Part shown: positions 29,448-35,583 of the stretch, piece after piece
How positions within the stretch are numbered: position 1 is the stretch's first letter
How the letters are laid out: every line of letters begins with the position of its first letter
Source of the DNA: Giardia intestinalis
Lineage: Eukaryota
DNA length: 64,000 bases
Assembly (NCBI GenBank): GCA_000002435.2
Contig: CM018792.1
Direction: 5' to 3' (one strand)
Translations under genes and position numbers: made by a program
Notes under the pieces: generated by a model
The model's database searches: none
Seen by the model: only the letters and a program-made list of their open reading frames with translations
Told to the model about the DNA's origin: nothing

Positions 29448-31829
29448 ATGTTGGTAGGATTTCTCCTAGTTTGTGCAACCGTGCTGGCAAAGGACACCGG
29501 GAAGACCGCATGCGAGCTTTCCAACACAGAATGCGCCCAAAACCTGAAGGACGCGGGCTGCAAGACGTGCGTCGGGACGGAGCCTGACCAGACGTGCACT
29601 GAGTGTACAGATCCCTCCCACAATGTACAGATTGACAAGAAGAGTTGCGACGCCAACTGCCCGGAGCACGCCGCGGCCAACTCGAAAGTGTGCGGGTGCG
29701 TCGCTGGGTACCAGCCGACTCCCGGGCAGAACCAGTGCGAGCTTTCCAACACAGAATGCGCCCAAAACCTGAAGGACGCGGGCTGCAAGACGTGCGTCGG
29801 GACGGAGCCTGACCAGACGTGCACTGAGTGTACAGATCCCTCCCACAATGTACAGATTGACAAGAAGAGTTGCGACGCCAACTGCCCGGAGCACGCCGCG
29901 GCCAACTCGAAAGTGTGCGGGTGCGTCGCTGGGTACCAGCCGACTCCCGGGCAGAACCAGTGCGAGCTTTCCAACACAGAATGCGCCCAAAACCTGAAGG
30001 ACGCGGGCTGCAAGACGTGCGTCGGGACGGAGCCTGACCAGACGTGCACTGAGTGTACAGATCCCTCCCACAATGTACAGATTGACAAGAAGAGTTGCGA
30101 CGCCAACTGCCCGGAGCACGCCGCGGCCAACTCGAAAGTGTGCGGGTGCGTCGCTGGGTACCAGCCGACTCCCGGGCAGAACCAGTGCGAGCTTTCCAAC
30201 ACAGAATGCGCCCAAAACCTGAAGGACGCGGGCTGCAAGACGTGCGTCGGGACGGAGCCTGACCAGACGTGCACTGAGTGTACAGATCCCTCCCACAATG
30301 TACAGATTGACAAGAAGAGTTGCGACGCCAACTGCCCGGAGCACGCCGCGGCCAACTCGAAAGTGTGCGGGTGCGTCGCTGGGTACCAGCCGACTCCCGG
30401 GCAGAACCAGTGCGAGCTTTCCAACACAGAATGCGCCCAAAACCTGAAGGACGCGGGCTGCAAGACGTGCGTCGGGACGGAGCCTGACCAGACGTGCACT
30501 GAGTGTACAGATCCCTCCCACAATGTACAGATTGACAAGAAGAGTTGCGACGCCAACTGCCCGGAGCACGCCGCGGCCAACTCGAAAGTGTGCGGGTGCG
30601 TCGCTGGGTACCAGCCGACTCCCGGGCAGAACCAGTGCGAGCTTTCCAACACAGAATGCGCCCAAAACCTGAAGGACGCGGGCTGCAAGACGTGCGTCGG
30701 GACGGAGCCTGACCAGACGTGCACTGAGTGTACAGATCCCTCCCACAATGTACAGATTGACAAGAAGAGTTGCGACGCCAACTGCCCGGAGCACGCCGCG
30801 GCCAACTCGAAAGTGTGCGGGTGCGTCGCTGGGTACCAGCCGACTCCCGGGCAGAACCAGTGCGAGAAGGCCCCTAACACGCAGTGCAATACTCCCAACT
30901 GCAAGACCTGTGACAACCCCAAAACAGACAACGAAATCTGCACCGAATGTAATGATGGCAACTACCTCACCCCGACAAAGCAGTGCACGCAGAGCTGCGG
31001 AACAATAGGAAGCTACTATGATGGAGACAAAGCGTGCGAGCCTTGTGATCCTAGCTGTGCTGGGTGCACCACAAAGGGGCCAGCGAAGTGCACGCTGTGT
31101 CCTCCCGGGAAGAGGCTCCAGTACACCAATGATGATCCTAATCAAGGTGGATCTTGTGTAGATGAGTGCAAAGCAGAGATGGACGGGTGTGCAGAGTGTG
31201 GAGCGATAATCGGCGGTACGAAGTACTGTTCAAAATGCAAGGAAGATAAGTGGGCACCTCAGAATGGCGTGTGCGCTAATTCAGTAACAAGGAATTCATT
31301 CTGCACGAACGCAGCAGGTGGTGTATGCACTCAGTGTGCTGCAGATCATTTCCTTCAAGATGGCGGTTGCTACAAACTCGGCAGACAGCCTGGTGTCCAG
31401 ATATGTGCAGCGGCGGGTCCCAATAGCCTGTGTACTACGTGCGTAAATGGACAGAGACCAGATACCAATACTGGAGCCTGTCCTGTGTGTCCAACAGGCT
31501 GTGACACATGTACAGGGACATCCTCGCGGGCGCCCGAATGCCAATCTTGCCTTCTGGGATACTATTTCGATTCTGATAAAAAACTGTGTGTGAAATGTAC
31601 CGAGAATAGTAGTGCTATTCAAGGTGTTAGCAGCTGTGTGAGCTGCGCTCCTCCATCTAACAATCAAGGATCTGTCGTCTGCTACCTCATAAATGATAGC
31701 GGTAGCACAAACAAGAGTAGCGGGCTCTCCACGGGGGCCATAGCGGGGATCTCCGTTGCTGTGGTCGTTGTTGTGGGGGGTCTCGTAGGGTTCCTTTGCT
31801 GGTGGTTCCTCTGCCGGGGCAAGGCGTGA
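29448..31829 (+). CDS. Variant-specific surface protein (VSP), intact, 793 aa, with six tandem 75-aa repeats
   Basis: ATG at 29448 and leader [14 protein letters not shown]. The body is Cys-rich with many CxxC motifs and the GGCY motif ([10 protein letters not shown]). The C-terminal TM segment is [30 protein letters not shown]-stop, followed by ACTTAGGTAGTGAATGC. The track ORF from 29004 is an upstream in-frame extension with no Met or signal sequence. Confidence 0.85.
   Translation: [793 protein letters not shown]
29511..30860 (+). repeat. Six perfect head-to-tail copies of a 225-bp (75-aa) unit inside VSP1
   Basis: Unit starts are at 29511, 29736, 29961, 30186, 30411 and 30636. The unit is [75 protein letters not shown]. 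The translations are identical in all three + frames and in the two open - frames, which implies nucleotide identity. Confidence 0.95.
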
Positions 31830-31846
31830 CTTAGGTAGTGAATGCT
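31830..31846 (+). promoter_or_regulatory. VSP-conserved 3' element containing an AGTRAAY polyadenylation signal (CTTAGGTAGTGAATGC)
   Basis: It lies immediately after the VSP1 stop. The same motif recurs after VSP2 (33661-33680) and VSP3 (35564-35583). Confidence 0.6.
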
Positions 31847-31896
31847 GTACAATGTGTGATAGAAGGTGATAGTGGGTGATAGTGTGATAATGGAGT

Positions 31897-33680: not shown

Positions 33681-33721
33681 ATACAATGGGTGATAGTGTG
33701 ATGATAGTATGATAGTGGAGT

Positions 33722-35563
33722 GTGATATGCACAGCAGCCAAGGATGGAGTATGCACTGCTTGTAATACAGATAGTCAGTACATATTCCAGAACAAGGCAG
33801 ACAAGGTGACCCCTGGTAATGAGTGCATCCTGTGCTCTGATACTAAGGGAGCAGATGGATATACGGGAGTGGCCAACTGCGCCACATGTACAGCGCCAGC
33901 TAGTAGTACAGGACCTGCCACGTGTACAGAGTGCCAAGCAGGGTTCGTTAAGAAGGGTGATGCATGTGAGAAGTGTGATCCGTCCTGTCTGACCTGTGAG
34001 ACATCGGCGGCCCAGTGCACATCGTGTCCAGAGGGGAAGTACCTCAATGGGAATCAATGTGCTGATAACTGTGGTAATGATAAGTATGCTGATCCAGAGT
34101 CGGGAACGTGCAAGGCATGTAGTACAATAACTGATTGCACAGAATGCTCCTTTGACGAAGCTAAGGGGAAGCCGAAGTGCACAGCCTGCGGTAGTCAGAA
34201 GATCCCCAGGACGGCCCTCGACGGGACCTCGACCTGCGTCGATAAAACGCTTGAAGGATGCAAGGGCACTGACAAGGAGCTGTTCATAAAGGAGGACCAA
34301 TCGGCGTGCTTATTATGCGGAGATACTACAGGAACTAACAACGATAAGGGGATTGCTAATTGTAAGACATGCACTAAAACACAAGCTAACGCCGCACCTG
34401 TCTGTGAGACGTGCAAGGAGGGATACATTAAGAAGGGAGCTGATGCGGCCGCCACGTGTGAGGCTTGTCATCAGAACTGTGCCACATGTTCTGAAGCTAC
34501 GACAGAAAATAAGTGCCTGACCTGCAAGGAGGGGTTCTTCCTGGCCGGCACCGGCGAAGGAAAGTGCATCTCGTGCAAAGACGGGGCAGAAGGATCGTAC
34601 AAGGGAGTCCCTGGATGCGCTCGCTGCGACGCCCCGTCTGCTGCTGGACCAGCTGTGTGCAAAGCCTGTGACCACGGGTACTCTTTACAGGGAACAACGT
34701 GTGTGAAGACTTGTGAGGACCCCACGGCTTGTGGCGGGACAGCTGGAGCCTGCGATGCTATAGTAATCGACAATGATGGAGTAGAGCATCATTACTGTTC
34801 CTATTGTGGAGAGAGTGGTAAGTATCCTATCGATGGTCTCTGTGTTGATTCAAATGGAAAGCAAGGAAATACTTGTAACAACCATGTCTGTGAGTCTTGT
34901 ACTACGGGGTACTTCCTATACATGAACGGCTGCTATGATGTGTCGAAGGCTCCTGGCAACCTCATGTGCAAGACAGCAGCCAACGGGGTCTGTACTACTC
35001 CCAATGCCAACAATAGATACTTCATAGTACCAGAGGCACAGGCTACTGATCAGTCCGTGCTAGCCTGTGGCAACCCATTAGGCACATTGATAGGTACTGA
35101 TAGTACCGCTAAGGCATACGTGGGAGTGGATGGCTGCTCCCAGTGTAAAGCGCCAACACAGCTAGACACTCCTGGTATGGCTGCTGCTGTGTGTACCTCT
35201 TGTGACAGTAGTAAGAAGCCCAACAAGGACGGCAGTGGGTGCTTCACATGTGCCGTTAGTGGATGCTCGCACTGCAACAGAGACAACATGTGCGAGGCAT
35301 GTAGTAGTGGTAAGAAGGTGAGCCCTGGGAGGAAGTCATGCGTGGATGGCTGTCCCAGCAACTCCACTGACACCGACTCTGTCTGTGTGTGCAGTGATGG
35401 ATACAGCCCTGATGATGCTGGGACCTCCTGTGTGTCCTCTGGCGCCAACAGGAGCGGGCTCTCCACGGGGGCCATCGCGGGCATCTCCGTGGCTGTCATC
35501 GCTGTCGTGGGGGGCCTCGTCGGCTTCCTCTGCTGGTGGTTCCTCTGCCGGGGGAAGGCATAA
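33722..35563 (+). pseudogene. VSP copy lacking ATG and signal peptide (5'-truncated VSP cassette or pseudogene)
   Basis: The ORF opens after the in-frame TAG at 33713-15 as W-S-V-I-C-T-A-A-K-D-G-V-C-T-A-C. It is 61 nt from the VSP2 stop. The body is CxxC-rich, carries YMNGCYDVS, and ends ...[33 protein letters not shown], followed by GTACTTAGGTAGTAAATGC. Confidence 0.6.
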
Positions 35564-35583
35564 GTACTTAGGTAGTAAATGCG
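35564..35583 (+). promoter_or_regulatory. VSP-conserved 3' element / polyA signal (GTACTTAGGTAGTAAATGCG)
   Basis: It is the same motif, placed right after the VSP3 stop. Confidence 0.6.

Follow-up and report, generated by a model that had tools for sequence, protein, structure and literature searches.

A linear VSP gene array of Giardia intestinalis with one complete head gene and two 5'-truncated units

Linear arrays, in which the spacers average 60 bp, are reported to hold more than half of the WB vsp genes of Giardia intestinalis (Adam et al. 2010, BMC Genomics 11:424, PMC2996952). According to this paper, an initiator, PyAatgTT, which is defined there, is often present on the first members of the arrays and on no downstream member, and the downstream members are probably unexpressed; genome-wide, 99 of the 164 array members are complete frames. 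The paper also describes recombination among the vsp genes, and for the arrays it offers a cassette hypothesis together with an alternative, namely that they are what is left over from vsp genes that were discarded. VSP switching is described as occurring without a change of DNA sequence or location, under epigenetic/RNA interference control. We have analyzed one array of this kind, which occupies positions 29,448 to 35,583 of a 64,000-nucleotide stretch of contig CM018792.1 (GenBank assembly GCA_000002435.2), called the window in what follows. The locus is very likely an assemblage A vsp linear array that consists of a complete gene, VSP1, and two psiVSP units, VSP2 and VSP3, derived from a truncated founder unit that was amplified.

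Several later reports bear on such arrays. The PyAatgTT initiator is present in 135 of the 136 complete WB VSPs (bioRxiv 10.1101/2022.03.07.483299); the same preprint treats the psiVSPs as a sequence reservoir and gives ACUUAGRUAGURAAYRY as the extended poly(A) consensus of VSPs and psiVSPs. The long-read WB reference contains the same kind of psiVSP arrays (Xu et al. 2020, Sci Data 7:38, PMC7000408). In G. muris, the psiVSP arrays are untranscribed, and their phylogeny points to exchange with intact VSPs, by recombination or by gene conversion (Xu et al. 2020, Microb Genom 6:mgen000402, PMC7641422).

The structure of such a locus, the missing starts and leaders and the reservoir idea are already known; they have been published since 2010 and belong to the WB annotation now in use. 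An earlier description of this DNA, made from its letters alone and referred to here as the sequence-only reading, is largely borne out in what it describes, and it offered a choice between plain pseudogenes and a reservoir for recombination or gene conversion into the head copy. This choice is not new, since it repeats the published hypothesis nearly verbatim (PMC2996952), and conversion into the head copy is unlikely. What we add is mostly corrective: the cut in the downstream units is ~110 codons deep, the sharing of the cut reflects common descent, and the head gene is no plausible acceptor.

Layout of the array and its head gene

A six-frame scan of the window found exactly three CRGKA-ending frames, all of them on the + strand and arranged head to tail (Table 1). 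All three match Pfam PF03302 (E = 6e-81 for VSP1, 5e-28 for VSP2 and 9e-41 for VSP3), and all three have a Cys-rich CXXC ectodomain, a conserved transmembrane (TM) segment and the CRGKA tail; their Cys counts are 102, 70 and 74, respectively. As the sequence-only reading had noted, the same element, ACTTAGGTAGTRAATGC, stands behind each frame (at 31829, 33663 and 35566), and shortly after its stop each frame has the extended poly(A) signal of the consensus given above. The array ends at the third of these elements, because the sequence beyond it is unrelated to the spacers.

An ATG followed by a leader is present in VSP1 only, as had also been claimed. The leader is 14 residues long (29448-29489), within the 14-17 residues used as a criterion for the signal peptide of complete VSPs (Xu 2020; bioRxiv 10.1101/2022.03.07.483299), and the same type of start occurs in the homologues P0121, P0124 and P0125 (MLIGFLLVC..., MLLGFLLVC...). 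From its sequence, VSP1 is a complete gene that could be expressed. Its 225-bp repeats encode 75-residue Cys-rich modules. It belongs to a separate VSP lineage with such repeats, in which the nearest relatives are XP_001709308.1 (88% identical over the C-terminal 400 residues), a 12-repeat WB VSP and AS7. A Pfam match of VSP1 to KARI_N (E = 2e-8) was rejected as spurious; it falls in the repeats, and no stretch of it passes alone.

The VSP1 frame is also open for 148 codons upstream of the ATG, and the long frame at 29004-31829 has 941 codons. The WB paralogue XP_001709308.1 (P0124) is annotated with an extension homologous to 29004-29447 (MYKSAPRP... versus MYRSAPRT...). This VSP subfamily thus has in common a conserved 5' flank that spans at least 270 nt; the stretch is probably such a flank and non-coding.

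The locus resembles the published G. intestinalis linear arrays in every main respect. Three + strand genes lie head to tail with spacers of the ~60-bp kind (61 and 55 nt here), the initiator and an upstream non-coding region occur on the first member only, the downstream members keep CRGKA and the extended poly(A) element but are without initiator, proper start codon or signal peptide, and the members are mosaics related by recombination. Nothing essential differs; the window copy resolves the six 225-bp repeats and both downstream units fully. The G. muris arrays are likewise made of tandem leader-less VSP copies. They contain 5-23 genes, are telomere-adjacent and have a CRGK tail, whereas here there are two units, presumably silent, in a chromosome-internal position.

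The array probably already has an entry in the older literature. A supplementary table of Adam 2010 has vsp95 as LA_TR225, the first gene in an array on chromosome 4, with TAATGTT and 716 aa, followed by a 3'-incomplete vsp96. When three 75-residue repeats are taken from the 941-codon long frame, 716 aa remain, and the repeat column of the table gives copies minus one, as for AS7. We infer that the window array is very probably vsp95 plus vsp96, with the repeats collapsed in the old assembly. The vsp95 entry implies three repeat copies versus six in VSP1, a difference that would reflect either copy-number variation or the collapse just mentioned.

Missing 5' ends and the spacers between the units

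VSP2 opens directly behind an in-frame TAA at 31888-90 and VSP3 behind a TAG at 33713-15, and both begin with the identical codons TGG AGT GTG ATA TG. (W-S-V-I-C-T-A-A), just as the sequence-only reading had described. In VSP2 no in-frame Met occurs before residue 74, and in VSP3 none before residue 403; a leader follows neither of these Met residues. In addition, no hydrophobic leader was found in any frame of either spacer.

The common opening had been taken for the place where a mature VSP begins after signal-peptide cleavage, and this is contradicted by the alignment. The N-terminal parts of VSP2 and VSP3 were aligned with seven full-length VSPs from a protein search (P0002, P0004, P0005, P0006, P0008, P0018 and P0036). 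These relatives have a 14-residue leader, then a Cys-rich module of ~95 residues (CQ.DG.H..TC...KCE....EICT.C..GG.P.DGFC.P...AAGC...C..C....FLFMGGCY...) and then, ~105-112 residues in, the motif PGSEICTAA.DG.CT.C, with which WSVICTAA(S/K)DGVCTAC of the two units aligns. Therefore, VSP2 and VSP3 are without ~110 codons, and psiVSP2, for example, has lost the N-terminal module in addition to the ATG start and the leader; the leader cleavage site is not where the units are cut.

The two truncation points in the window are homologous, and the repeated unit takes in, as had been proposed, the poly(A) element and then all of a 5'-truncated VSP. The same junction is also found elsewhere. The independently assembled metagenome scaffolds L011 and L012 share both the spacer and the body entry, ...GATATGCACAGCAGCC, with the window; in L011 this is so at two junctions. 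In L014, the same spacer has about seven repeat units, and the body begins 54 nt earlier (MGLLFIGGCYKTESQPGSEICTAA). Between two array spacers, L014 also has a 70-codon VSP mini-unit (1880-2147) made of the last part of the ectodomain, TM and CRGKA, which resembles vsp14 of Adam 2010. This mini-unit shows that the spacer is where deletions end, however much they differ in depth. Older WB protein models begin MLYSDSDS...GLLFMGGCY, in which, on back-translation by hand, we take MLY to be the ATG inside AGTGAATGCTGTAC and SDSDS to be the AGTGAT run. Assemblage B array proteins start at a third point, VNDPAGVSIDSLCRP. By sequence, then, the arrays sort into junction classes, each of which is common to many units.

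The simplest reading of the cut shared by VSP2 and VSP3 is that both would descend from one truncated founder unit that was amplified, and that the cut is not convergent, because the same junction occurs in arrays from other samples. The sequence-only reading was right to say that a shared cut is not what random decay would produce. A special explanation is unnecessary, however, since common descent predicts a shared cut and no selection for that cut is needed.

The spacers were said to be 67 and 61 nt long, which holds when they are counted from stop to GTG; counted from stop to first sense codon they are 61 and 55 nt. They were also said to be near-identical, and this has to be qualified: 58 of 66 aligned bases agree (88%), in addition to which the stop is offset by 3 nt and there is a gap of 9 nt, roughly the length of one repeat unit. 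Each comprises the poly(A) element, the sequence GCTRTACAATG and the 10-nt GGTGATAGNN repeat in a few copies, so the description of the spacers as built of GTGATAG-type repeats was correct, and within the window such repeats occur only there. The GGTGATAG repeat is found in the window only at 31856-31882 and at 33690. It is restricted to array spacers and is absent 5' of VSP1 and 5' of the solitary VSPs in L001, L013, L015 and L016. A double-unit pattern of the repeat matches the window three times, versus 0.12 expected from shuffles; two of these matches are exact and lie in spacer 1. In the linear-array literature, as far as the portions of Adam 2010 and Xu 2020 available to us go, we met no description of an entry ~110 codons in behind a shared 10-nt GGTGATAG minisatellite.

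The spacers also bear on whether the downstream copies are expressed. TGATAG comes back at 10-nt intervals, and the spacers therefore close all three frames; TGATAR stops do so in spacer 1, and all three frames are stop-closed in 7 of the 8 junctions examined. A complete extended poly(A) element and three-frame stops thus stand before each unit, and together they argue against expression by read-through from VSP1. Other routes to expression would be a spliced VSP1 leader, GTG initiation or a cryptic promoter in the spacer. Giardia promoters and 5' untranslated regions are very short, and a 60-nt spacer could in principle hold such a promoter. The long intact frames with their selection-like signatures would also fit expression, and in L011 and L012 a GTG start was placed at the homologous position (MICTAA...) by gene callers. 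Nevertheless, PyAatgTT is absent at VSP2 and VSP3, as it is at all downstream array members, and it is present in 135 of 136 real VSPs; the nearest look-alikes in the spacers, ACAATGTG and ACAATGGG, have stops behind them. A leader-less product could not reach the surface, and the psiVSP arrays of G. muris are not transcribed (PMC7641422). Expression of the downstream copies by any of these routes is, therefore, very improbable.

A short spliced exon that supplies an ATG and a leader, one of the findings that the sequence-only reading had said would refute it, was considered and rejected. The Giardia intron 3' motif CTRACNCACAG occurs nowhere in the array, the sole GTATGT (33079) is inside VSP2, and the "CACAG" at the body start is plain coding sequence (E-I-C-T-A) in the full-length relatives. 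We also considered the spacer as a decayed leader-coding region, in which an ATG at 31852 or 33686 (ACAATGKG) is in frame 17 or 14 codons 5' of the body, a distance that a leader would span. This was ruled out: four in-frame stops follow the ATG in spacer 1 and two in spacer 2, the same spacer ATG is out of frame in L011 and L012, and the body start is internal in the homologues and not a mature N-terminus. No structured RNA was found by Rfam at E <= 0.1 across 28500-36500. From sequence and from G. muris, VSP2 and VSP3 would have no promoter transcription of their own and would be untranslated, because its own poly(A) signal ends each upstream unit and the spacer closes all three frames.

Ordinary decay is also present in the VSP family. 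In isolate P15, solitary full-length VSPs are disabled by a single in-frame stop (EICT*CRAGG; L013 7700-8000) or by a frameshift (L015 1400-1630). These genes are annotated from the next Met (MGGCY..., MAATCGKC...), and as a result they resemble array-type truncations in the protein databases. The P15 "MGGCY..." proteins were considered as array units and rejected for this reason, as they belong to solitary full-length genes with the stop or the frameshift. A solitary VSP at L017 7940-8001 has a normal leader-like AFLLIPLFVASALMAAC but ACAGCC at the usual ATG position, and it looks like a gene that was pseudogenised through loss of its start codon.

Table 1. Features of the VSP array and its left flank, in window coordinates
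Feature	Position	Strand	Description or basis
VSP1, complete head gene	29448..31829	+	793 codons, TGA stop; leader, six 75-residue repeats, Cys-rich body, TM, CRGKA
psiVSP2	31891..33660	+	589 open codons, TAG at 33658-60; body/TM/CRGKA intact
psiVSP3	33716..35563	+	615 open codons, TAA at 35561-63; 5' boundary as in psiVSP2
Spacer 1	31830..31890	+	GCTGTACAATGT, then ~3.5 copies of the 10-nt GGTGATAGNN repeat; in-frame TAA 31888-90 at end
Spacer 2	33661..33715	+	Homologous to spacer 1, one repeat unit shorter; ends with in-frame TAG 33713-15
Extended VSP poly(A) element 1, ACTTAGGTAGTGAATGC	31829..31845	+	Overlaps final base of TGA stop
Extended VSP poly(A) element 2, ACTTAGGTAGTGAATGC	33663..33679	+	Sequence
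Extended VSP poly(A) element 3, ACTTAGGTAGTAAATGC	35566..35582	+	Array end
Initiator/Kozak-like TAATGTT (PyAatgTT) around VSP1 ATG (29448)	29446..29452	+	Sequence
Perfect tandem repeat within VSP1	29511..30866	+	225 bp x 6.0 copies, 100% identical (Tandem Repeats Finder)
Open in-frame stretch 5' of VSP1 ATG	29004..29447	+	ORF list; paralogue alignment
Truncated NEK-type protein-kinase fragment, left flank	28263..28811	+	Pfam: Pkinase profile positions 45-196 of 263

The open bodies and their possible role

The identity between VSP2 and VSP3 is 63% at the protein level and 67% at the DNA level, and 68 of 70 Cys are shared. Their comparison gives pS 0.58 and pN 0.26, with a synonymous divergence (dS) of ~1.1 that is saturated, so the ratio of nonsynonymous to synonymous divergence (dN/dS) of ~0.28 is approximate. 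The identity is patchy: it reaches 85-93% at the 5' end, in the tail and at ~32455-32514 and ~33253-33342, and the remainder is at 30-45%. In the five other frames of this DNA there are 9-64 stops. In a simulation of neutral substitution, ~50% of such frames were still open after 1% change and ~0.3% after 10%.

Both bodies are mosaics. In VSP2, 254 of the 544 body residues fall in exact blocks of 18-43 residues that are common to other VSPs, and in VSP3 the figure is 285 of 570; the partners are many different VSPs, array-type proteins as well as the full-length P0002, P0003, P0004, P0008 and P0036. At the nucleotide level, measured by maximal exact matches, exact blocks of 35-77 nt are common to the array bodies and L011, L012, L014 and L017; an 86-nt block with one mismatch is found in VSP3 (35286-35371) and in a solitary VSP of L017. 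On the sequences compared, this pattern indicates family-wide segmental exchange, in keeping with the recombination described by Adam 2010 and with the exchange suggested for G. muris.

VSP1 is 34-36% identical to VSP2 and VSP3 and has only the tail in common with them. Outside the tail, it has no exact block of more than 7 residues in common with VSP2 or VSP3 and none of more than 8 with any retrieved VSP2 relative. Conversion into the head copy, as the sequence-only reading had imagined it, thus finds neither a long shared block nor an upstream spacer repeat to work with. Because its homology is 3'-only and the spacer repeat is missing upstream, VSP1 is a poor acceptor for conversion from its own cassettes, and full-length genes of the VSP2/VSP3 clade elsewhere would be better candidates.

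The explanation that we favor, and that we consider probable when taken as a whole, is as follows. Each unit consists, in this order, of a spacer made of GCTRTACAATG and the 10-nt GGTGATAG minisatellite, a body that starts ~110 codons in, a TM/CRGKA tail and, last, the extended poly(A) element. One founder unit would have lost its 5' end. Its amplification would then have come about through unequal crossing-over, in which the conserved blocks of the tail, the poly(A) element and the spacer paired, and nested deletions beside the spacer would have come later. The units would stay open and Cys-conserving through gene conversion with other VSP genes and so form a sequence reservoir for the family. 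The likely exchange partners would be full-length VSPs of their own clade elsewhere in the genome, and not the adjacent VSP1. That the units have been selected for a role as a reservoir is a tentative suggestion, one that we find nearly as credible as its opposite.

An alternative is that the units are plain junk, discarded 5'-deleted VSP copies without a role, whose open frames and conserved Cys come from recent gene conversion by functional VSPs or from recent duplication; this is possible, although we rather doubt it. VSP2 and VSP3 are without a start codon, leader and initiator, as junk would be, and the nested 5' deletions by the spacer, such as the 54-nt longer unit and the 70-codon mini-unit of L014 or the 158-codon tail in isolate DH (see below), resemble progressive decay. 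The discarded-gene alternative of Adam 2010 (PMC2996952) is the same idea. On the other hand, 589 and 615 codons are fully open despite a 33% base difference, and neutral decay closes such frames after ~1-2% change. The high share of complete frames among the array members genome-wide, given at the outset, speaks against junk as well (PMC2996952). So does the fact that no near-identical functional source was found among the known Giardia proteins, the best overall identity being 62%. The block mosaicism gives no direction of transfer, and so it cannot separate a selected reservoir from junk that is repeatedly overwritten.

Several points weigh against the explanation that we favor. The search that found no source for the supposed junk also found no near-identical full-length donor or acceptor for a reservoir. 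A low dN/dS and an open frame are no proof of selection on the units, as the blocks may have evolved in functional genes and been copied from there recently; dS, moreover, is saturated. Some of the shared blocks coincide with motifs that are conserved throughout the family, for example AYVGV.GC.QC. The head gene VSP1 has no cassette-derived mosaic segment, and the silence of VSP2 and VSP3 is argued from their sequence and from G. muris.

A more ambitious proposal would make the spacer a dedicated array-boundary element, a recombination-prone minisatellite like the VSG 70-bp repeats that drives unit duplication and nested 5' deletions, with the three-frame stops shielding the units from translation and the units kept open by selection as donors. 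The spacer is indeed conserved between arrays of different samples while the bodies have diverged past saturation, but we regard this proposal as improbable.

Promoter-less and often 5'-incomplete copies near an expressed gene are also found in the Trypanosoma brucei VSG arrays (with 70-bp repeats), in Borrelia vlsE/vls and in Neisseria pilE/pilS. In those systems, mosaic genes arise by segmental conversion, and short repeats mark the cassette boundaries. Unlike them, Giardia is reported to switch without DNA rearrangement and has no defined expression site (PMC2996952), and the cassettes have neither their 5' spacer repeat nor homology of the body in common with VSP1. Homology that flanks the exchanged segment on both sides in the expressed gene and in the cassettes, as in the VSG, vlsE and pilE systems, is here confined to the 3' tail. 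Since VSP1 is without body homology to the cassettes and switching reportedly involves no rearrangement, any role of the array would be in slow diversification of the repertoire and not in switching. If true genome-wide, a boundary minisatellite that is conserved between arrays and silent units that look constrained might interest specialists; both bear on whether the Giardia repertoire diversifies by segmental conversion, as in trypanosomes and Borrelia.

Flanks, isolates and assembly

The array is chromosome-internal, between NEK/ankyrin genes on one side and housekeeping genes on the other. The comparison of isolates was anchored on the ribosomal protein L10 gene, 2 kb from the array. The flank is 100% identical to a contig of SRR10209740 and 98% identical to the assemblage A2 isolate DH (GCA_000498715.1). 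At this site, DH has only a 158-codon VSP tail, which is 85-89% identical to the end of VSP3 and abuts an ankyrin/RING gene. The part of the window that holds VSP1, VSP2 and most of VSP3 is replaced in DH by an intact NEK kinase of 671 aa and a 241-aa Ank/RING gene (L001 13190-15260). Similarity to DH stops at ~28910-28962, and the adjacent 25952-28910 is only 83% identical, versus 97-99% further out. On the other side, identity to DH steps down toward the VSP3 tail, from 99% beyond 36285 to ~93% at 35985-36284 and 85-90% nearer to the tail. These differences between DH and the window imply that the locus is structurally polymorphic within assemblage A. Of the two outcomes that the sequence-only reading had looked for in a comparison of isolates, a difference in copy number or structure is thus present, in the form of the DH tail; mosaic VSP1 alleles with segments from VSP2 or VSP3 are not seen in the VSP1 of the window.

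It might be asked whether the missing N-termini are an artefact of assembly, lost to collapsed or mis-joined repeats. Short-read assemblies of nine samples all break at 36272-36323, just 3' of the array, and a tenth (L002) ends at 35844. The old WB assembly, in which the VSP1 repeat was seemingly collapsed to three copies and the second gene was incomplete (vsp95 and vsp96), would also be in keeping with such an artefact. However, the same junction was assembled independently in L011 (twice), L012 and L014, each of the two window junctions is in frame and consistent in itself, and arrays of the same kind are present in the long-read WB reference (PMC7000408). An artefact is, for these reasons, extremely improbable. 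The breaks in the short-read assemblies, together with the stepwise fall in identity to DH, suggest a repeated or allelically divergent segment that starts ~700 bp downstream of the array.

The G+C content of the window is raised at 18001-20000 (0.60) and at 24001-26000 (0.58), compared with a window average of ~0.46-0.48.

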